A DNA stretch of 64,000 nucleotides from an uncultured Thermodesulfobacteriota bacterium (GTDB lineage Bacteria > Desulfobacterota > GWC2-55-46 > JADFVP01): the NCBI GenBank assembly GCA_964510775.1, contig CAZEBZ010000003.1:424-64423 (forward strand). The letters run 5' to 3'. Both the position numbers and the translations under genes were made by a program. This document shows positions 43,226-56,670 of the stretch, piece by piece (position 1 is the first letter of the stretch; every line of letters begins with the position of its first letter). The notes under the pieces were generated by a model. It was not told the origin of the DNA and did not search any database. It saw only the letters and a list, made by a program, of their open reading frames with translations.

Positions 43226-43990
43226 TTATACCTCCAGCATCATACCGTCATAGGCAAACTCTATGCCCTCGGGCAGTCTTGGGTTATCTTGTGGATAATC
43301 AATGTCGTGGCTAAGGTGCGTAAGTATCGTTCTCTTAGGGCGAAGCTTTTTTACTATATCTACGGCCTGCTCCACAGTCATGTGCGTAGGATGGCTCTTA
43401 TAGCGTAGCGCGCCGAGGACAAGAAGGTCAAGGTCGCGGAGTTTTTCCATGGAAGAAGGCGGAATCTGACTGCAGTCCGTAATATAAGCAAATGAGGCTA
43501 TACGAAAACCCAGCACCAGGCCCCTGCCGTGCCTTACCTCAAGGGGAATTACCTCAACGGGCCCTATAGTGAAAGGGCCGAGTATTTCGGTAATGGAGAG
43601 TTCAGGTTTAAAGCTCTCACCACGCTCGCCGCTAAAAATATAATTAAATAAGAGGGTCAGACGCTCTATGGTCTCGGCGCTGCCAAAGCAGGAGATGGGC
43701 CCCTTCTGAAGCATATTAAAGGAGCGAAGCTCGTCTATTCCATGTACATGGTCGGCGTGAGGGTGTGTAAAAAGTACGGAGTCTATGCGTGTAATGCCTG
43801 TAGAGAGGGCCTGCGAGCGAAGATCAGTAGAGGTATCGATGAGGATATGCGTGCCTTCAACCTCTATAAGGGCAGATGATCTTGTGCGGGAATTACGAGG
43901 GTCATTTGAGGTACATACTGAGCAGGCGCAGCCGATCACTGGCACGCCCGTAGATGTGCCGCAGCCTAATATAAGGAGTTTTATAGCCAT
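43226..43990 (-). CDS. MBL-fold metallo-hydrolase (PhnP-like)
   Basis: LLILGCGTSTGVPVIGCACSVC...FTHPHADHVHGIDELR gives the HxHxDH metal-binding motif. Confidence 0.85.
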   Translation of the reverse strand: MAIKLLILGCGTSTGVPVIGCACSVCTSNDPRNSRTRSSALIEVEGTHILIDTSTDLRSQALSTGITRIDSVLFTHPHADHVHGIDELRSFNMLQKGPISCFGSAETIERLTLLFNYIFSGERGESFKPELSITEILGPFTIGPVEVIPLEVRHGRGLVLGFRIASFAYITDCSQIPPSSMEKLRDLDLLVLGALRYKSHPTHMTVEQAVDIVKKLRPKRTILTHLSHDIDYPQDNPRLPEGIEFAYDGMMLEV

Positions 43991-46564: not shown

Positions 46565-47575
46565 ATGACAAAGGCCGTGGCCCTGCTCTCAGGGGGCCTT
46601 GACAGCACACTCGCCGTAAAGATGATAATAGACCAGGGTATTGAGGTTCATGCCCTTAACTTCACCTCGGCTTTTTGCACATGCACAACAAGCGCGAGAA
46701 AGGCCGGAGGCTGCAAGAGCGAATCAGTGCGCGTGGCAGAGGAGTTCGGAATACCTATAAAGGTTATGTTAAAGGGTGACGACTACATGGACATTGTCCG
46801 CTCGCCTGCTCACGGCTACGGCAAGGGCATGAACCCCTGCGTGGACTGCCGTATATATATGTTCAAGTCCGCCAAGAAGTATATGGAGGAGATAGGGGCC
46901 TCCTTTATCCTCACAGGCGAGGTACTTGGACAGAGACCAATGAGCCAGAGGCGTGACACCATGAGGATAATCGAGCGTGACAGCGGACTTGAGGGTCTTA
47001 TCCTGAGGCCTCTGTGCGCCGGTCATCTTGAACCTACCATTGCGGAAAAAGAAGGCCTTGTAGACAGGAATAAACTCCTAAGCGTAGCGGGACGGGGGCG
47101 AAGGCCGCAGATGGATCTCGCAGAAGAGCTCGGAGTAAACGACTACCCATGTCCATCAGGGGGCTGCCTCCTAACGGACCGCACTTTTTCCAAAAAAGTG
47201 CGGGATCTCTTTGATAATAAGAGTAAGATTGAGAGGCATGACCTCTCTCTCCTTAGAACAGGCCGGCACCTTCGCTACGAGGGTTTTAAGATAGTAGTAG
47301 GAAGGGACGAGGCCGATAACGCCCGCCTGAAAACCCTCTTAAAGCCCGAGCACATGGCCTTAGAGCCCGTTGACTTTCCAGGCCCCCTTGTACTCATCAC
47401 AGAGAAAGCCCCTGAAGACGTACTGGAGTTCGCCGGAAGACTCATCCTACGTTATGCCTCGGCCAAGTTAGATGGTAATAATAAGGTACGCCTCTCATTC
47501 AACGGGGAGACAAGGGACTTTACACCTGCGGACGCCGTGACTGAAGATGAGCTTATAGAGGCGCGCGTATGCTAA
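46565..47575 (+). CDS. PP-loop ATPase (QueC/ExsB-like N-terminus) with Cys clusters and a ~120-aa C-terminal extension
   Basis: MTKAVALLSGGLDSTLAVKMIIDQGIEVHALNF resembles the QueC N-terminus (SGGxDS PP-loop). The Cys motifs are CTCTTSARKAGGC, CVDCR and CPSGGC. The 336-aa length is well beyond canonical QueC (about 230 aa). Confidence 0.65.
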   Translation: MTKAVALLSGGLDSTLAVKMIIDQGIEVHALNFTSAFCTCTTSARKAGGCKSESVRVAEEFGIPIKVMLKGDDYMDIVRSPAHGYGKGMNPCVDCRIYMFKSAKKYMEEIGASFILTGEVLGQRPMSQRRDTMRIIERDSGLEGLILRPLCAGHLEPTIAEKEGLVDRNKLLSVAGRGRRPQMDLAEELGVNDYPCPSGGCLLTDRTFSKKVRDLFDNKSKIERHDLSLLRTGRHLRYEGFKIVVGRDEADNARLKTLLKPEHMALEPVDFPGPLVLITEKAPEDVLEFAGRLILRYASAKLDGNNKVRLSFNGETRDFTPADAVTEDELIEARVC

Positions 47576-48456
47576 GAGTAAGAGAAGGGGCGTCAATAAA
47601 AAACTCCGCCGAGGCGGACTCGCCCGAATACGCACTCGTGCCTGAGACCACAAAAAAACTCTCACGCCTGAAGGATATTTTAAGAGATATGGGCGATGTT
47701 GTAGTAGCCTTCTCCGGAGGTGTAGACTCTACTCTGCTCCTTAAGACCGCCAAGAGCGTCCTTGGAGAGAGGGCCGCTGCCATAACGGCAACTTCGCCTA
47801 CATACCCCGCTCATGAGTTCAATGAGGCTAAGAGACTGGCAGATGAATTTGGCGCACAACACATTATTGTGCACTCCAATGAACTGGAGATAGAGGGGTT
47901 CTCGGAAAATACGCCACAGAGGTGTTATCACTGCAAGAGCGAGCTCTTCACTATCGCCAAAAAAGAGGCCCTCGCCCTCGGTCTCTCTAATGTAGCTGAC
48001 GGGGCCAACATAGACGACCTCAAGGATTTTCGCCCCGGCAGCAAAGCCGCGCAAGAGCTTGGCGTAAGAAGTCCTCTTCGTGAAGCGGGGCTGACAAAAG
48101 CGGATATTCGTGAGATAAGCCGCGCCATGGGCCTTACGACATGGAACAAACCGGCCTTAGCATGTCTCTCATCAAGGTTCCCCTATGGAACAGAAATCAC
48201 CGATAAGAGGCTCGAGGTTATAGCAAAGGCAGAGGACTTCATGAGGACTCTGGGATTTAAGGAATTCAGAGTAAGGTACCACAAAGAGACAGTTCGAATA
48301 GAGACCGCTGCCGCCGAGATGCCGCGCCTCCTTCAAGAGCCCATAAGAAAAAAAATTATCTCGTCCATGAAAGGGCTTGGATTTATCTATGTAACCATAG
48401 ACCTCGAGGGCTACAGGACAGGAAGCATGAACGAGGTTCTCGAAAAATTTTTTTAA
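47569..48456 (+). CDS. LarE-like PP-loop ATP-dependent sulfur transferase family protein (TIGR00268-type)
   Basis: LKDILRDMGDVVVAFSGGVDSTLLLKTAKSVLGERAAAITATSPTYP and the conserved Cys in LACLSSRFPYG match the LarE active-site context. It overlaps the upstream PP-loop gene by 7 nt. Confidence 0.75.
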   Translation: MLRVREGASIKNSAEADSPEYALVPETTKKLSRLKDILRDMGDVVVAFSGGVDSTLLLKTAKSVLGERAAAITATSPTYPAHEFNEAKRLADEFGAQHIIVHSNELEIEGFSENTPQRCYHCKSELFTIAKKEALALGLSNVADGANIDDLKDFRPGSKAAQELGVRSPLREAGLTKADIREISRAMGLTTWNKPALACLSSRFPYGTEITDKRLEVIAKAEDFMRTLGFKEFRVRYHKETVRIETAAAEMPRLLQEPIRKKIISSMKGLGFIYVTIDLEGYRTGSMNEVLEKFF

Positions 48457-48531: not shown

Positions 48532-51273
48532 TCAGAGAGGTTCGTCGCCGGCCTCTCGGGCCTCGTCAATCCACTTCTCAACATGGAGCTCTAGGAGGCT
48601 CTTAAAAAATTCTCCTTCAGGGTTCAGCATCTCATATATACCGCGAGGCGGGTCGGCCTCAAAACCACGGAACACAAGCTCACCGGAGCGGTAAAAAATC
48701 TCGGCAAAAGTATTATTAGGGCCTGCGGTAAAGATAAATTCCATACGCTCCTGAGGGAGAAAAAAAGAATTTAGTATGCTCCCATGAAGACCTTCTCGCC
48801 CCGTTATCTTCCTGTAAAAAGTCTTATCTCCCCTGCTCTCCTTTATGTACGCAAAGAGGGCCTCATCGCTAAGTGCCTGGCCCTTGTTATATATATCCGT
48901 AATAGTAGAGATGAGCCTTAATGAAGAAAAAGACTCTCCGTCGATTATCTTATTAAAGTCCTTGAGGTAGTTCTCAGTAATCAGCCTCGTAAGGGCCTTG
49001 GCGTTAGATAATTTTCTTCCTGATATGAGTTTCTCAAAGGCGTGTTCCAGATCAGGGGGCATCCTCAGCGTATAGGCAGTATGGATATAGACATCAAAGG
49101 GGTACTCTATGTCCTTGTTTCTGCGCCTCTCTCTATCACCTGAGAGAAGTATCTCCAGATAGGCCTTAACCATTGTATTTCTAAAGGTGCCACGCGCCGA
49201 CTCGTTTATCTTCTCTCCTATGGATACGTTCACCGGGCCCTGATACCCCTTTATATGACCAAGCTCGATTATCTCGGCCCTCGCTCCGTAAGTTATAAAG
49301 AGCCCTGCCTCCATCTCACGCTTAATTGCAGCCGTAAGCTCATCCTTGTATACGCTCTCAAGGCGGCCTTCTTCCTCACCTATCTTGAGAATTGCCTCAG
49401 CAGAGTCATCAAGACCGTCATCAGTCTCAAGAATCATCTCCAGCCTCTTCCTCTTAAGGGCCTCTCTGCGCTCCTCGAATTTTTTATGAACCTCGTCCAT
49501 AACCTCCCTGCCGCTGCCGGGCGGAAGTCTCTGCTCCAGCTCACTGCCGGATTCCTCGATTATCCTTCGAATATCACGGGCCAGCGCCACAAGAGAGCGC
49601 ATGCCTCCGGAAAAAATAATAGCGTCTCCCGGAATATTAGTAAGCCTTATGCCCATCTCATCTTCTGAGAGCCCCATGCCATCGGCATAGCCCTGTGCAG
49701 CGTCAAGTATGGGTTTAAAAAAATACTCCTTCATGAAATCAGCCATAGCTACTTCTTTAATCTTATGCGTCTTACGGCTAAAGTCCTTCATATCAACAAA
49801 TAACTGACCTTCTTTTCTACTCTGCAGTATATTTATCATAGGCCGCTTATCCGTTGAAAAACGGTAAAGACGGCCCTTCATATATTCATCGCGGAGCATC
49901 TTATTCGCGAGTTCAAGTCGTCTATCTGAGAGTCTGTTCATCATAAGAGAGACGCTATCGCTCACCATGGCATCAAGGGTAGCGGCATAATAACCCTCTA
50001 CTACGGAGACAAGGGCCTCACGGCTCTGCTCTCGACCGCCACCTGCGATGCCTTTTAAGACAGACCTCTTCTTACTAAACTCAAGGACAAGACCTCGCAG
50101 CCCATTCAGTCTGTCAGTCCTCAATCTATCCTTTGAGACAACCTCCATTAGCGCCTCAATAGACCTTGCGAGCCTCAACGCATAAGGGCCGTCATTTAGC
50201 AGATTTGTAATAAGACGATCCTCGCTGTAGAGGTCAAAAAACTCTTTTCGAAGCTCCATATCAGGCACATCATATGCCGTCATATAATCAAGTATCTTCT
50301 CCCTGAAAGTCCCTATCTTTACCTGCTCTACGACTGTCTTCATCAGCCTCTTATCACTCTTTACACGCCTTACCCCCTCTTCCACAAGAAGGCGCAGAGA
50401 CTCTGTCTGTACGCTAAGAGGAACAAGATGAGAGGATAAAACCTCGAAGGTATGGCGGCAGATACGATATGGGTTATGAGAAGAGCCTAAGAGAGCGGAT
50501 TTAACGACTATGAAGTGCTCGGGTACAAAGGCCGCCCTCAAGACAAAGGCCACGCCTTTTTCATCAGACCAGGCGGCGGTGAGATCTCTAATGACAGCAG
50601 AAAAAACATTATAAAAACAGAGGCCCACAGAGAGATCCAGTTTGTCGTAACCAAGGCCTTTTACACGAAAGGTCTTAAGAGCCCGCTGATATTTTCTTAC
50701 AGTATTTACGAGCGCAAGAAGTGTCAGGTAGGAGGTCTGCTCCTGCAGACCGTTATACATTTCGTCACCTCGCGCCTTATTCATCATGCCCTTTAGCCAG
50801 GAGATAAACTTTGCGCCGCTCTCGCCGTGAGCGAACCAGGCATAAAGCACAGAGCTGTCAAGATAGGGGGTACTCTCAAGTATCCTCGCGGCAAGTTCTC
50901 TCTCAAAAGACTGTGCCACAAATATATCCAGCCTGCAGGTCTTCTCACGCAGATCCGGAGTAGCTACAAAAACAGTACTCTCACGATTATGCTCATCTTC
51001 TTTACTGGGAGCCTTCAAAGACTCGTAGCGTTTCTTAATAAGGGCCGCGAGCCCTTTTACCGCGGCCTCTACAATAGCCTCATCATCAGAGCCAAGATGG
51101 TAAGGCACCTTTAGCTCCGCTACGTTAAGGCCGTACTTGAACCTAAGAGACTTCGGAGACAATGTCCACAGCGATCCCTTGAGGACTGCCTCAAGGCGGT
51201 CCGGTAGGTCCTCAAAAAAATCTATCCGCTCTTTTGCATAATCAAAGTTCATAACAGGGTCGCAGCTCTCCAT
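48532..51273 (-). CDS. Large (913 aa) soluble hypothetical protein with a central class III nucleotidyl cyclase / GGDEF-like palm-domain motif set
   Basis: No TM helix or signal peptide. Ordered motifs are LFVDMKDFSRKT (aa ~491-502), IPGDAIIFSGG (aa ~547-557), and GLFITYGARAEIIELGHIKGYQGPVNVSIGEKINESARG (aa ~657-695). They parallel the cyclase-domain blocks FxDIxGFT, IGDAxMAVxG and GxxxGxxxxGxxG...GDxVNxASR. The flanking regions of about 490 aa (N) and about 215 aa (C) have no recognisable domains. Confidence 0.6.
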   Translation of the reverse strand: MESCDPVMNFDYAKERIDFFEDLPDRLEAVLKGSLWTLSPKSLRFKYGLNVAELKVPYHLGSDDEAIVEAAVKGLAALIKKRYESLKAPSKEDEHNRESTVFVATPDLREKTCRLDIFVAQSFERELAARILESTPYLDSSVLYAWFAHGESGAKFISWLKGMMNKARGDEMYNGLQEQTSYLTLLALVNTVRKYQRALKTFRVKGLGYDKLDLSVGLCFYNVFSAVIRDLTAAWSDEKGVAFVLRAAFVPEHFIVVKSALLGSSHNPYRICRHTFEVLSSHLVPLSVQTESLRLLVEEGVRRVKSDKRLMKTVVEQVKIGTFREKILDYMTAYDVPDMELRKEFFDLYSEDRLITNLLNDGPYALRLARSIEALMEVVSKDRLRTDRLNGLRGLVLEFSKKRSVLKGIAGGGREQSREALVSVVEGYYAATLDAMVSDSVSLMMNRLSDRRLELANKMLRDEYMKGRLYRFSTDKRPMINILQSRKEGQLFVDMKDFSRKTHKIKEVAMADFMKEYFFKPILDAAQGYADGMGLSEDEMGIRLTNIPGDAIIFSGGMRSLVALARDIRRIIEESGSELEQRLPPGSGREVMDEVHKKFEERREALKRKRLEMILETDDGLDDSAEAILKIGEEEGRLESVYKDELTAAIKREMEAGLFITYGARAEIIELGHIKGYQGPVNVSIGEKINESARGTFRNTMVKAYLEILLSGDRERRRNKDIEYPFDVYIHTAYTLRMPPDLEHAFEKLISGRKLSNAKALTRLITENYLKDFNKIIDGESFSSLRLISTITDIYNKGQALSDEALFAYIKESRGDKTFYRKITGREGLHGSILNSFFLPQERMEFIFTAGPNNTFAEIFYRSGELVFRGFEADPPRGIYEMLNPEGEFFKSLLELHVEKWIDEAREAGDEPL

Positions 51274-51547
51274 TCGCCGTAGACGTATAGTTTATACTAA
51301 AAAACTTCAAAAACAAAGATGGATAATCCTTGTATTTGATTATAATAATAAGTTAAAATAAATAGTTAAGTCAAGGTCATTACCTGTAGCGGCTGCTTAC
51401 CGCACCATAAACAGACCCCTTGAAGAGTCATCTCTCATGATTAGCCTCTTTGTATCAGATAAAAAAACTACTACCAACACAAACCAGCCCCCTGCAAAAC
51501 GTTCACCGCGGGGATCTTACCTACATTAAAAAAATGGGATTTAAGCG

Positions 51548-53407
51548 TTGCTAATCAAAAAAATCTTAAGAGCCAGGTATATCCTACCCTCTCTTGTCTT
51601 CATCATACCCCTTATCGTCTACTCCATAACCCTCATGGGAGGCTTTGTCTACGATGATAATCTACAAATAATCAGAAACCCCTGGATAAGGGACTTAGAT
51701 AATATCCCAAAACTCTTTGTCTCCTCGACTATGAGTTTTCTAAATGGTCAGCCTGCAAATACTTACAGGCCGGTATTCTACCTCGTGTACATGGCCGAGT
51801 ACCTCACCTTCGGGCTGAGACCATGGGCGTGGCACCTCGTCAACATACTCCTCCACTCCATGAACGCACTAATGGTTTATTTTCTCGCCTCTCTCTTCAT
51901 CACAACAGAAAAAAAACCAAGAGCTGATAATCGCGGCCCTTTAGCGCTTACCATGACAGCCCCCTTCATCGCAGGTCTTGTCTTTGCCCTCCATCCCATA
52001 AACAGCGAGGTAGTCTCATGGGCCGGAACCATACCGGAACTTATATTCACCTTGCTAGTACTCTGCGCCTTTACCCTTTACATCCTTGCCGAGAGAGCGC
52101 CGCAAAGAGCTGCGGCATACCTCGCATGCTCTGCTGCCTGCTTCTCAGTGGCGCTATTCTCAAAAGAGACGGCCATGGCCCTTATTATTATCATACCGCT
52201 CTATGAGTTTACGAAGAGGGGTTGGCAGAGTCTTAGACGCTGGAAAATTTTTATAATTTACCTTATACCAGCTGTAATATATATGGTCATGAGAACCTCT
52301 GCCCTTGGCGGAATGACGCAGATGAGTCTTATTAAGATGACCTTCTACGAGGGGCTGCTGAACGTATTCCCGCTCATTGCGAGATACCTTGGTAAACTCA
52401 TCTTACCCATAAATCTAAGCATCATCTACTCCTTTACTCCTGTCCATTCCGCCTTTGAGATGATGTTTATCATTGGTCTGATAGCCTGCGCGGCGTTTGC
52501 AGCCTTAATATTGTTACTGAGGAAAAAAAGAAAGGAGATCTTTTTTCTCATCTGGATACTAATCCCCCTGCTGCCCGTTCTCTACATGCCTATACTCTCA
52601 GTGGGAGGCTTTGCCGACCGCTATCTATATCTCTCCACCGCCGGCGCCGCCGTCTTCATAGCTCTTATGGTTTCTCGAATGTATAAGAGGCAGCAGAGCA
52701 GTAAAAGACAAAAAACAATTCTCATCGCAACCCTGACGCTTATTCTCGTCATATACTCTGCTGCCTCCATAAAGCGGGCAATTATCTGGAGAAGCGACTA
52801 CTCCCTCTGGTCAGATACCGTTATAAAATCACCGAAAAGCCCAAACGCCCTCTATAACCTTGGATGGGCCCTACAGAGCAGAGGCGGAACGGAGAACCTT
52901 AAAAAAGCCCTCAAAGTTTACAAGGAAACGATCCGGGTAAAACCCAATAAGGAAAACGCACATTACAATGCCGCACTTATTTATCAGAAGATGGGCGATT
53001 ACCCTAATGCCCTTATTCACTACAGAGCATCCTTACGTTTAAAACCTTCCAACGCCACTACCCCATATAACATCGCAATGTTATACCAGAGCATGGGAGA
53101 TATATCTATGGCCATAAAGTTTTACAACCTTGCCATAAGCATAAATCCGCAGTACGAAGATGCCCACTACAACCTGGGCTGGACATATCAAAAGATGGGC
53201 GATTACTCTAATGCCCTTATTCATTTAAAGGAAGTACTTAGACTCAACCCACGCAGCACAGACGCCCATTACATGATAGGCAACATATACGATAACAGGG
53301 GTGAGAGGGAAAAAGCTCTTAGCGAGTTTAGTAAGGCCGTTACCGCGGATCCCTCGTACGGCCCTGCGAAGTCTGAGTTAAAGCGCCTCCTTGACAAAAC
53401 AAGATAA
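51548..53407 (+). CDS. TMTC/PMT-like membrane glycosyltransferase-family protein with a C-terminal TPR array (DUF1736-type)
   Basis: TTG start. The N-terminal polytopic region has the GGFVYDD motif and about 10 TM helices. The C-terminus has at least 5 TPR repeats (ALYNLGWALQSRG, AHYNAALIYQKMGDYPNA, TPYNIAMLYQSMGDISMA, AHYNLGWTYQKMGDYSNA, AHYMIGNIYDNRGEREKA). Confidence 0.8.
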   Translation: MLIKKILRARYILPSLVFIIPLIVYSITLMGGFVYDDNLQIIRNPWIRDLDNIPKLFVSSTMSFLNGQPANTYRPVFYLVYMAEYLTFGLRPWAWHLVNILLHSMNALMVYFLASLFITTEKKPRADNRGPLALTMTAPFIAGLVFALHPINSEVVSWAGTIPELIFTLLVLCAFTLYILAERAPQRAAAYLACSAACFSVALFSKETAMALIIIIPLYEFTKRGWQSLRRWKIFIIYLIPAVIYMVMRTSALGGMTQMSLIKMTFYEGLLNVFPLIARYLGKLILPINLSIIYSFTPVHSAFEMMFIIGLIACAAFAALILLLRKKRKEIFFLIWILIPLLPVLYMPILSVGGFADRYLYLSTAGAAVFIALMVSRMYKRQQSSKRQKTILIATLTLILVIYSAASIKRAIIWRSDYSLWSDTVIKSPKSPNALYNLGWALQSRGGTENLKKALKVYKETIRVKPNKENAHYNAALIYQKMGDYPNALIHYRASLRLKPSNATTPYNIAMLYQSMGDISMAIKFYNLAISINPQYEDAHYNLGWTYQKMGDYSNALIHLKEVLRLNPRSTDAHYMIGNIYDNRGEREKALSEFSKAVTADPSYGPAKSELKRLLDKTR

Positions 53408-54657: not shown

Positions 54658-56670
54658 CTAATAAAAAATCCTTGCGAACTTACGTGAAGCACTAAAATAT
54701 ATGCGGTTATCGGTATAATCAGTTGAAGACGAATTAGTTATGGAATAAGTGTGATTCATAGAGAATCTCCAGGCCCTCAATTGGTAAGTTAGATCATTGC
54801 CCACTTCAAAGTGGCGGGAAAAAGTATCTTCAACAGTAAAGTCATCATACCGTGTCCTAACAACCCAAGTCATTCGCCGGAGAATAGGCCTGCTGTAACT
54901 CAAATTAGAATAGATAAGACGTGATTTATTAGAGCCTGTTCTAAATGTTGTCATTGTTATGTTGTAACCAAGGTCGGCGTTAAGGTTACCCTTAAATATC
55001 TTACGAGTATAGTGCGCCGAGATATCCCCTGTATTGGAACGGTCAAAACCTGTAATCTCATCAAATAAAACTCTGCGTTCCAACTCAAACTCCCCGCTAA
55101 TTCCTTTTATGGGGTTTGTCCTCACTGTAAAAATTGCATCCTCAGATGTATTCTTGAGGTTCTCATGAGCCACGGTACTGTTCTCTTTTTCATAGGATCC
55201 ATTGACAGAAATATACTTTTGCCAAAATCTGCTGTCAAAACTAATGTTATAGTTGCTGTTTTTTTCCTTAACCTGACCGGAAGTAGACTTCAGTACGGCA
55301 AAGAAAGACCCGCCAACATCAAAGAAGAAGAACCTGTTAAAATCTATTCTGTTAAAGTGAAGAGAGCCGTTGTGGGTTATACCCTGGCCGCCTATGTCAT
55401 TATTATCAACACTTTCTTTATTAAAACGCGTATTCAAAATATAACCAAGACCATAACTTGACCTAAACTTAAAGCGTGAAAAAGTCCTGTAATAATTCAG
55501 ATTAGTGTTGGTACTCAATGACTTGCCATCAGTAAGGTTACGATTAGCCGGATTAGAGGAGCTCGACTCTACAAGAGCTAACATAAAACCTTCAGAGACA
55601 GAAAGATGATCTGTCAGGTTATAGGCAAAAGTACTGCTGGCCCTTGTGCGAGTATCGTCCCGCGAGGTAGTAGGACTCTCGGAGAGATCCTTACTTACAT
55701 TTAATTTAAGGTTTAGATTAACTTTCTTCGAGACATGATAATCCAGAGCCCCGTCGTATGAGGTACGCGTAGATCTCGTCTCTACAATATCAGTACTCTC
55801 ATGGTGAAGTCTGTGTGACTGATGAAAGAAACGACTTGGGTCAGATAAGAGCGACATATCTACATTAAATCTTTTTTCCTGACGACTATTCGTCTGAGTA
55901 TTCTCTAAATTCGAGCGTAATACATCGAGACCAAAGACAGAGTGTCTCGATAGCTGAGTAGAGTTTCCAAAAGTAATGGCACTGCTGCGTAAAGATTCTC
56001 CTGTATTTAAAGTATCAAGGTCTATGTCGTAAGTTAAAGTATTCTTGGTAGGACCATACTCTTTATCGGCCCTATATTGTATACTTATTGTCTTGTCACT
56101 ACCGCCGGTACCGCCCCTATCTGCGTATTGCCTCTCGACAGTAAGACTCATCACAGGCAAGGTAACAAACTTACCGGACCAGGCAAAACCAATAGTGGTA
56201 ATATTCGTTGAAGGAGCGGAAGATCCATTAATAGTACTCCAGCTTGTATCCCTGCTGCCAAAGAGTGTTAGAGGTATACGGCTTCGAGGTATTAGGGTAG
56301 TATTTACGTCAAGAAAGAGGCTATTAAAAGTAGTATCCGTAGTATCCGTGGAATTTGCGCTTAAGATATCGAAGTTCTCACTCCTTCTATCGTACCTTAC
56401 ATTGACATCATATATCATGAGCAGCCGGGATATTGCATTACCATAGAGGGTAAAATCATAATTTTGCCCAAAAGATGAGGTAATCTCGTCACTCTGAGTT
56501 GAATTCCTATCATTAGCCGTACGCTTCTCATGGGAATAATCATAGAAGACCGAGCCTACAATATTAGTATGGGCGTAAGGATCCACCTTAACACACCAAC
56601 CACTCGATGGGACAAAGATAGCCGCCAAGGACAGGATTAATACTAAGCATGCCCTTCTTATGTTTATCAT
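54658..56670 (-). CDS. Outer-membrane beta-barrel protein (putative porin component)
   Basis: Signal peptide MINIRRACLVLILSLAAIFVPSSGW. The 670-aa sequence is S/T/N/Y-rich with alternating amphipathic beta-strand character and a C-terminal aromatic residue (…RIFY). Confidence 0.65.
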   Translation of the reverse strand: MINIRRACLVLILSLAAIFVPSSGWCVKVDPYAHTNIVGSVFYDYSHEKRTANDRNSTQSDEITSSFGQNYDFTLYGNAISRLLMIYDVNVRYDRRSENFDILSANSTDTTDTTFNSLFLDVNTTLIPRSRIPLTLFGSRDTSWSTINGSSAPSTNITTIGFAWSGKFVTLPVMSLTVERQYADRGGTGGSDKTISIQYRADKEYGPTKNTLTYDIDLDTLNTGESLRSSAITFGNSTQLSRHSVFGLDVLRSNLENTQTNSRQEKRFNVDMSLLSDPSRFFHQSHRLHHESTDIVETRSTRTSYDGALDYHVSKKVNLNLKLNVSKDLSESPTTSRDDTRTRASSTFAYNLTDHLSVSEGFMLALVESSSSNPANRNLTDGKSLSTNTNLNYYRTFSRFKFRSSYGLGYILNTRFNKESVDNNDIGGQGITHNGSLHFNRIDFNRFFFFDVGGSFFAVLKSTSGQVKEKNSNYNISFDSRFWQKYISVNGSYEKENSTVAHENLKNTSEDAIFTVRTNPIKGISGEFELERRVLFDEITGFDRSNTGDISAHYTRKIFKGNLNADLGYNITMTTFRTGSNKSRLIYSNLSYSRPILRRMTWVVRTRYDDFTVEDTFSRHFEVGNDLTYQLRAWRFSMNHTYSITNSSSTDYTDNRIYFSASRKFARIFY

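Follow-up and report, generated by a model that had tools for sequence, protein, structure and literature searches.

The window analysed here, a stretch of 64,000 nucleotides from a contig of an uncultured Thermodesulfobacteriota bacterium, carries on its minus strand a long open reading frame with a promoter-like site, the latter falling within a divergent intergenic region of 275 bp. The true start of the protein is likely M8 at position 51252, which gives a length of 906 aa. The initial annotation had placed an ORF and three motif blocks here, and both proved to be real. The features are as follows:

51345 to 51374, minus strand: promoter-like site TTGACT-18-TATTAT, recognised by consensus likeness alone (10 of 12 matches)
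48532 to 51273, minus strand: whole ORF, 913 codons and a stop
49939 to 51252, minus strand: all-helical N-terminal domain, residues 8-445
49528 to 49938, minus strand: cyclase-homology domain, first half, residues 446-582
49768 to 49800, minus strand: block 1, FVDMKDFSRKT, in which D494 is aligned with the first metal-binding Asp
49603 to 49638, minus strand: block 2, NIPGDAIIFSGG, at the beta2-beta3 turn, in which D550 is aligned with the second metal-binding Asp
49318 to 49527, minus strand: insertion, a charged two-helix (coiled-coil) hairpin, residues 583-652
49054 to 49317, minus strand: cyclase-homology domain, second half, residues 653-740
49180 to 49227, minus strand: block 3, VSIGEKINESARGTFR, placed by motif and secondary structure only
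48535 to 49053, minus strand: C-terminal alpha/beta domain, residues 741-913

Genomic surroundings and distribution of the family

The gene stands alone among housekeeping neighbours, a persistent one being a tRNA-thiolation-type PP-loop pair, and no defence or mobile-element context was found around it. No same-strand operon partner could be detected either among the neighbours in the window or when 779 flanking ORFs, taken from 82 loci, were clustered without bias; the survey for a conserved neighbourhood, which had been recommended by the initial annotation, thus returned a lineage synteny block only. A cyclic-nucleotide receptor or phosphodiesterase reliably linked to the gene was not found in the neighbourhood. 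A neighbouring MBL-fold hydrolase was considered as an Apyc1-type phosphodiesterase; it scored 26 bits against a cutoff of 50, with the match confined to the metal-motif region, and, with only 32 of 48 loci having it close to the target, it was dropped as partner evidence.

The protein is not the orphan it had been taken for. At 50% identity its family falls into at least 210 clusters, and at least 196 species-level genomes carry it, all of them uncultured Thermodesulfobacteriota, 'Deltaproteobacteria' or Myxococcales. Searches of Pfam, NCBIfam, PADLOC and the PDB sequences gave no relevant match for the whole protein, 34 relatives or 8 insertion-free cores, and the family profile likewise found no cyclase or other match in the PDB. 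The proposed HMMER comparison with Pfam PF00211 and PF00990 also came back empty, even at E<=10 and with the insertion-free members included. No account of the family was found in the literature, which was searched for the motifs and for comparable architectures. A phage or plasmid origin, hinted at by one JGI name, was considered and no such relatives turned up. The suggestion that the protein is a defence effector is therefore unsupported, as it has no PADLOC match, no phage or plasmid relative and housekeeping surroundings. A fusion with an Fe-S domain (P0046) appeared in just one gene call, at the very edge of a 3.2-kb contig, and was left out as evidence. The family is new and architecturally distinct, and it contains a class III cyclase-homology domain.

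Fold of the cyclase-homology domain and its flanks

According to the structure models, residues ~446-740 form a class III nucleotidyl-cyclase homology domain that has diverged strongly, the functional centre of the protein. The first half consists of a conserved GRLYRFS lead-in, beta1, two helices, the beta2-beta3 hairpin and alpha3, while the second half runs from beta4 through beta5 (EAGLFITYG) and the strand-to-helix block to alpha4 and beyond, with a closing strand; together they form the beta-alpha-alpha-beta-beta-alpha-beta core with the class III additions. Model confidence falls to pLDDT < 50 at residues 669-688. Class III cyclases ranked top with two independent models and two structure-comparison programs, with near-complete coverage of the domain, and in the domain-only model the structures with lower scores included Pol I (up to 9.8), Cas10 (8.8) and GGDEF (8.0). 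The models and the structure comparison thus support the cryptic class III cyclase-type palm that had been proposed inside a large soluble protein, and of the cyclase, GGDEF or Pol-beta palms named at the time, the class III fold stands and the other two do not.

In a profile-profile comparison by hhalign, 125 family cores matched 9 real cyclase domains with P=1.1e-4 and a probability of 56% over 122 columns, outscoring all of the controls (P from 0.007 to 0.62). The match spans blocks 1 and 2 alone, in the expected register, with D494 and D550 on the two metal-binding Asp residues and N546 on the Lys/Glu that determines specificity; the similarity to cyclase domains over these first two blocks is suggestive at the sequence level. 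The second half of the domain alone gave no alignment support against the cyclases (P=0.53), and for this reason the putative transition-state Asn and Arg are assigned from motif and secondary structure only.

The motif likeness could in principle be a coincidence and the region not of cyclase type at all. Every sequence-library search was negative, which agrees with such an explanation, as does the 4.7% probability, limited to block 1, of an earlier and shallow hhalign run (13 sequences against 6 mammalian domains), now superseded. However, two models and two structure-comparison programs place the class III cyclases at the top, the deeper profile comparison outscores all of its controls, and within the family conservation is highest at the motif positions, so that coincidence is effectively refuted.

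The helical insertion that had been noticed between blocks 2 and 3 was confirmed as a coiled-coil hairpin, situated between alpha3 and beta4. In ordinary cyclases the same site holds the dimerisation arm. Across the family the spacer can be as short as 44 or as long as 211 residues and the hairpin is almost missing in some of the members, which indicates that the insertion is dispensable for the domain.

Both of the flanking regions had been described as unrecognisable, and the searches bore this out. The N-terminal domain (~440 residues) is kept throughout the family and evolves fast; no recognisable relative of it was found, and a regulatory or sensor role is presumed. The C-terminal domain contains the conserved motifs DIYNxGxAxS and GxxxFKGFE, and no relative was found for it either, its PDB matches being only engineered OspA beta-hairpin repeats, which were judged meaningless. 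The C-terminal domain was also considered as a second, degenerate cyclase in a mammalian-like tandem. Comparison of the core with the C-terminus by hhalign gave 0.7%, and that of the C-terminus with cyclases gave P values of 0.03-0.04, leaving the tandem reading unsupported.

Conservation of the catalytic-type and base-selecting positions

Class III cyclases carry F-x-D-I-x-G-F-T as block 1 and G-D-x-V-N-x-A-S-R as the transition-state motif. In the present family D494 lies at the end of beta1 and D550 at the beta2-beta3 turn, as judged from hhalign and secondary structure, and the conservation of these two residues among homologues, on which the initial annotation had staked its proposal, was 100% and 96% in the 126 full-length members used for all of the conservation figures. 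In the same set G549 was conserved in 97%, G556 in 100%, N690 in 92%, R694 in 94%, G695 in 98% and R698 in 97%, and all of these rank among the best-conserved residues anywhere in the protein, the peak of conservation falling in the cyclase-homology domain. The motif G-E-K-I-N-E-S-A-R stands at the strand-to-helix junction, in a stretch of low local model confidence, where N690 and R694 correspond to the transition-state Asn and Arg by motif and secondary structure only.

One alternative is a pseudo-cyclase, a domain with the class III fold that may bind a nucleotide without cyclising it and that would serve as a ligand-sensing or scaffolding module. Such cyclase-fold pseudoenzymes are represented by 7sua, which is AdvA of A. 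baumannii, and by 6yii, the cyclase-like ATP-binding domain of a P. aeruginosa regulator, to which the family is likened by its fold. In a preprint, AdvA was reported to be inactive and to lack both the catalytic residues and the dimerisation arm (PMC13060281). In contrast to AdvA, the family retains the catalytic-type residues as its best-conserved positions, and in the few degenerate members these are lost together: all 5 members without D550 also lack N690 (Fisher p=5e-7, shared ancestry ignored), and the losses of N690 and R694 co-occur (Fisher p=1e-5, shared ancestry ignored). Top conservation together with joint decay is what selection on an active site would be expected to produce, and we consider the pseudo-cyclase somewhat unlikely.

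The base-selecting positions are different. In adenylyl cyclases the pair of Lys and Asp/Thr selects ATP, and in guanylyl cyclases Glu and Cys select GTP. Neither pair was present at residues 546 and 683 of the family, which have Asn546 (87% Asn) and Val683 (88% Val), the latter placed as the second base-specifying position by motif register only. Since this combination is non-canonical, the nucleotide used is not predictable and may differ from ATP or GTP.

The changed pocket also leaves room for a palm nucleotidyl transferase of another chemistry, which would make cyclic di- or oligonucleotides, like GGDEF proteins or Cas10, or would nucleotidylate protein or RNA. The core fold is common to the palms of GGDEF proteins, Cas10 and polymerases, which come up at lower scores, and the persistent tRNA-thiolation-type PP-loop pair next to the gene points the same way, as do block 1 (D-x-K-D-F) and the tail of block 3 (A-R-x-x-x-R-N), which we take to resemble GGDEF motifs. 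The GGDEF hallmarks, a PF00990 match and a beta2-beta3 turn with the GG(D/E)EF signature, were absent, and so were the GGDD motif and the CRISPR-Cas context of type III Cas10. This other chemistry appears quite improbable.

Comparison with known cyclases and the proposed function

The closest known systems include the catalytic domains of bacterial class III adenylyl/guanylyl cyclases (PF00211), such as those of P. aeruginosa CyaB, M. tuberculosis Rv1900c, Spirulina CyaC and Synechocystis Cya2. Unlike these, the family has no detectable PF00211 match, uses Asn and Val in place of Lys/Asp(Thr) or Glu/Cys for base selection, and adds up to ~170 residues between alpha3 and beta4 as the hairpin; its flanks, 440 helical residues and 170 residues of alpha/beta structure, are found in no described cyclase. 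The trypanosomal receptor-type adenylyl cyclases GRESAG 4.1/4.3 have a short and compact insertion, whereas that of the family is a long coiled-coil hairpin, and they sit in the membrane as receptors whose catalytic and base-selecting residues are canonical. Compared with the Pycsar pyrimidine cyclases (PycC, the cUMP and cCMP synthases) the family is much larger in architecture, and no PADLOC PycC match, adjacent TIR or transmembrane effector gene or defence island was found.

Considering all of these results, the best overall explanation, which we hold with evenly balanced confidence, is a class III-type cyclase that converts an NTP into a cyclic nucleotide of a kind that is not predictable. 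With the catalytic-type residues kept and the base-selecting ones changed, the protein is probably a new regulated nucleotide cyclase; the domain is probably catalytic, as its conserved residues suggest. The gene product is a cytoplasmic protein of ~906 aa, the domain of which would bind a nucleoside triphosphate with two divalent cations. By analogy with other class III enzymes it would form a head-to-tail pair with another copy of itself, placing D494 and D550 from one chain opposite N690 and R694 in the other. The 3'-OH of the ribose would then attack the alpha-phosphate, yielding the cyclic nucleotide and pyrophosphate, while control of activity or pairing presumably falls to the helical domain at the N-terminus, to the hairpin and to the C-terminal domain.

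A bolder version of the cyclase model, which we regard as unlikely, is that the Asn546/Val683 pocket takes a substrate other than ATP or GTP (e.g. a pyrimidine or a modified nucleotide) and makes a non-canonical messenger. The protein would then be a chromosomal housekeeping signalling enzyme and not an anti-phage one, with the variable hairpin, at the position of the dimerisation arm, as a new built-in regulatory lever.

Class III cyclases act as the chief source of cAMP and cGMP across every domain of life, and their production of cCMP and cUMP in phage defence was demonstrated more recently. A family that is invisible to the sequence libraries, with its catalytic-type residues kept and its base-selecting residues changed, points to cyclic-nucleotide or related chemistry missed by annotation pipelines. 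The family also offers a natural series in which the same domain carries coiled-coil insertions from almost none to ~170 residues, and this series could reveal how pairing and activity are controlled. Should the domain turn out to be inactive, it would be a further sign, next to AdvA, that non-enzymatic functions have been built on the cyclase fold. The carriers are widespread lineages of sediment and groundwater without cultured representatives.

Gene product and conserved core

The open reading frame of the target was confirmed by translation. In the homologues, and in P0001, a database entry of 906 aa which is 100% identical to the target, the sequence starts from the second Met, which points to M8 (nt 51252) as the likely start and to a protein of probably 906 residues, not 913; no support for the first ATG (51273) was found among the homologues. 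Residue numbers follow the 913-aa form. The divergent intergenic region contains a good sigma-70-like consensus match, TTGACT-18-TATTAT, ~70-100 nt upstream of the target; since the downstream gene is convergent, the target is probably transcribed alone. The three cyclase-like motif blocks proposed in the initial annotation agreed exactly with the translation:

48532..51273, minus strand: target ORF, 913 aa
49768..49800, minus strand: block 1, FVDMKDFSRKT
49603..49638, minus strand: block 2, NIPGDAIIFSGG
49285..49311, minus strand: EAGLFITYG
49180..49227, minus strand: block 3, VSIGEKINESARGTFR

The charged insertion described between blocks 2 and 3 was also found (70 residues, 47% of them charged), and the protein was rightly regarded as soluble, as no membrane segment was predicted in it.

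Conservation was scored over 126 full-length family members with identities down to ~23%. The positions with the highest conservation in the full-length protein cluster mainly in the core (residues ~446-740): D494 and G556 are conserved in 100% of the members, G695 in 98%, G549 and R698 in 97%, D550 in 96%, E691 in 95%, R694 in 94% and N690 in 92%. In the few degenerate members, which are the most divergent ones and the hardest to align, the losses of catalytic-type residues tend to coincide. D550 is absent from five members, and N690 is missing in each of these (Fisher p=5e-7, shared ancestry ignored); the losses of N690 and R694 co-occur (p=1e-5, with the same simplification). This pattern fits a single active site that would be under joint selection.

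Two further conserved regions were observed. A GRLYRFS motif (49864-49884, residues 464-470; G467 98%, Y470 96%) stands just before strand beta1. The C-terminal domain (48535-49053) contains the strongly conserved DIYNxGxAxS (N796 96%, G798 97%) and GxxxFKGFE (G864 97%), and a smaller conserved cluster is formed there by Y795, N796, G798, G864, F868, G870 and E881.

Predicted fold and relationship to class III cyclases

The window protein was modelled by AlphaFold2 using the family alignment as input (mean pLDDT 79.8). The modelled core consists of strand 487-494, two helices, the hairpin 543-546/551-556, helix 558-582, the long helices 589-616 and 621-651, strands 657-664, 667-673 and 680-685, and then helices. 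D494 is placed at the end of the first strand and G549-D550 at the hairpin turn, while residues 669-688, the region of the proposed Asn/Arg block, have pLDDT below 50. When the 913-residue model was compared with the PDB by Foldseek, nearly all top matches were class III adenylyl/guanylyl cyclases, with marginal E-values (0.016-0.1). Structure comparison gave 13.6 for CyaC, 13.5 for Cya2, 13.3 for AC5-C1, 13.1 for soluble guanylyl cyclase and 12.9 for cUMP synthase, versus 9.4 for the highest unrelated match. Thus the cyclase-like palm of the initial annotation is supported by the predicted model, while its GGDEF wording is not, as neither GGDEF nor Cas10 chains occurred among the 60 best matches. 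The residues would be compatible with a different, GGDEF-, Cas10- or polymerase-like nucleotidyl-transfer chemistry, but the structural ranking disfavours it and we consider it unlikely.

The suggested HMMER check against the Pfam cyclase models gave no match, even for insertion-free cores, and a profile of these cores had no match in the PDB. Nine real cyclase domains were harvested from the alignments of two PDB searches, whose baits were consensus sequences used solely to retrieve real chains. When 125 family cores, with the insertion columns removed, were aligned to these domains by hhalign, a P value of 1.1e-4 was obtained (probability 56%, 122 columns). In this alignment D494 matches the first metal Asp, G549-D550 the second, and N546 the base-specifying Lys/Glu. 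The controls gave P values of 0.55-0.61 (reversed profiles), 0.62 (N-terminal region of the family), 0.037 (C-terminal region) and, at best, 0.007 (25 motif-preserving block shuffles). The comparison suggests, but does not prove, remote homology with the register proposed initially, and a coincidental resemblance of the motifs appears extremely improbable. The domain is very probably a class III cyclase-homology domain.

When aligned separately, the second half of the domain showed no similarity to the cyclases (P=0.53). The assignment of N690 and R694 as the putative transition-state Asn and Arg therefore rests on the nine-residue motif match (G-E-K-I-N-E-S-A-R in the target, G-D-x-V-N-x-A-S-R in cyclases), their strand-to-helix position and their conservation, in a part of the model where local confidence is low.

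The base-selecting pair is Lys with Asp or Thr in adenylyl cyclases and Glu with Cys in guanylyl cyclases, and these canonical residues were seen in the harvested sequences. In contrast, the target has Asn546 (87% Asn in the family) at the first position and, assigned by motif register, Val683 (88% Val) at the second. The family has a coiled-coil hairpin between alpha3 and beta4, the site of the dimerisation arm in ordinary class III enzymes and of a small extra subdomain in trypanosomal ones. Since the spacing from block 2 to the GLFISYG block varies from 44 to 211 residues across the family (110 in the window protein), the hairpin is a variable excursion within one domain. The flanking 440-residue helical and 170-residue alpha/beta domains are kept family-wide and occur in no described cyclase; the C-terminal one was tested as a degenerate second cyclase domain, with no support.

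Family distribution and genomic neighbourhood

Searches of Pfam, NCBIfam, PADLOC and PDB sequences with the target gave no match, nor was a relevant one found in Pfam with 35 aligned members. The protein is not an orphan: 48 full-length relatives were found at 37-74% identity, with one outlier at 28%, and the exhaustive search gave at least 210 clusters at 50% identity, and relatives occur in 196 species-representative genomes. The best 80 genome matches all come from uncultured MAGs with the labels Thermodesulfobacteriota, 'Deltaproteobacteria' or Myxococcales; within the scope of these scans, the family is restricted to uncultured delta-type lineages. The recorded names all read 'hypothetical protein', except for 'phage pi2 protein 07', given by JGI; this label is unsupported, as neither the 50,697 phage records nor the 72,556 plasmids searched contained a relative. 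P0046, a gene call on a 3230-bp JGI contig, has a NuoG/formate-dehydrogenase-type Fe-S N-terminus (PF13510, PF10588, others), and its remainder matches family residues 273-902 with 50% identity. Either a redox domain has truly been fused there in place of part of the N-terminal domain, or the contig is chimeric through misassembly.

In the window the target diverges from a membrane-plus-TPR gene and converges, as claimed, on a two-gene PP-loop operon, the genes of which overlap by 7 nt:

43226-43990, minus strand: MBL-fold hydrolase (NCBIfam 'GPMC system MBL fold metallohydrolase', 361.8 bits, cutoff 360)
46565-47575, plus strand: ThiI-like PP-loop ATPase with C-terminal NFACT-R_2 RNA-binding domain
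47569-48456, plus strand: LarE-family sacrificial sulfur transferase, PP-loop ATPase (TIGR00268, 340 bits)
51548-53407, plus strand: divergent neighbour, 619 aa, with multi-spanning hydrophobic N-terminal half and C-terminal TPR repeats (NCBIfam matches solely TPR-type)
54658-56670, minus strand: 670-aa protein with signal-peptide-like N-terminus and Ser/Thr/Asn-rich beta-strand-like sequence

Retention of the neighbours was counted over 79 genome loci and those from exact look-up, the denominators being loci with enough flank. The LarE-like gene, tail-to-tail with the target, was kept in 48/65 loci, the ThiI-like gene in 42/59, an M50 peptidase in 33/51, the MBL-fold hydrolase in 32/48 (within 6 kb) and the TPR gene in 29/50. 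When the 779 ORFs flanking the target in 82 loci were clustered in an unbiased way, no further recurrent partner and no same-strand partner emerged. Loci without the synteny block have other housekeeping genes, e.g. for purine, tryptophan and biotin biosynthesis. Thus the suggested survey revealed lineage synteny around a single-copy chromosomal gene, and neither an operon nor a defence island. The defence role considered initially has no support: the surroundings are housekeeping genes, and PADLOC, phage and plasmid searches gave no match. Neither the window nor any of the 84 loci contained a canonical class III cyclase.

The MBL-fold hydrolase directly adjoins the target in one locus (L075); since its match to the Anti-Pycsar Apyc1-like model is weak (26 bits, cutoff 50), it was not counted as a phosphodiesterase partner. 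In L004, which carries the member most distant from the rest of the family, a ThiI/NFACT-R_2 gene together with TusA is found 2.5 kb away. Related loci have 1-3 paralogues of the divergent TPR neighbour, accompanied by a family-2 glycosyltransferase (L001). The 670-aa protein, which 17 loci retain upstream of the target, was matched by neither Pfam nor NCBIfam and may belong to an undescribed family of outer-membrane proteins.

Proposed mechanism

The target is most simply read as a regulated nucleotidyl cyclase of the class III type, and the chances that the domain is an active NTP-cyclising enzyme are about even. Two chains would form a head-to-tail dimer, with D494 and D550 coordinating two divalent cations on the triphosphate and N690 and R694, contributed by the other chain, stabilising the transition state during the attack of the 3'-OH on the alpha-phosphate. 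The Asn546/Val683 pocket would pick the base, while the hairpin and the N-terminal domain may govern pairing or activity. No description of the family was found in the literature, Pfam, NCBIfam or PADLOC. It is a new and architecturally distinct family, having a class III cyclase-homology domain with a coiled-coil hairpin inside, non-canonical base-selecting residues and two flanking domains without known relatives.
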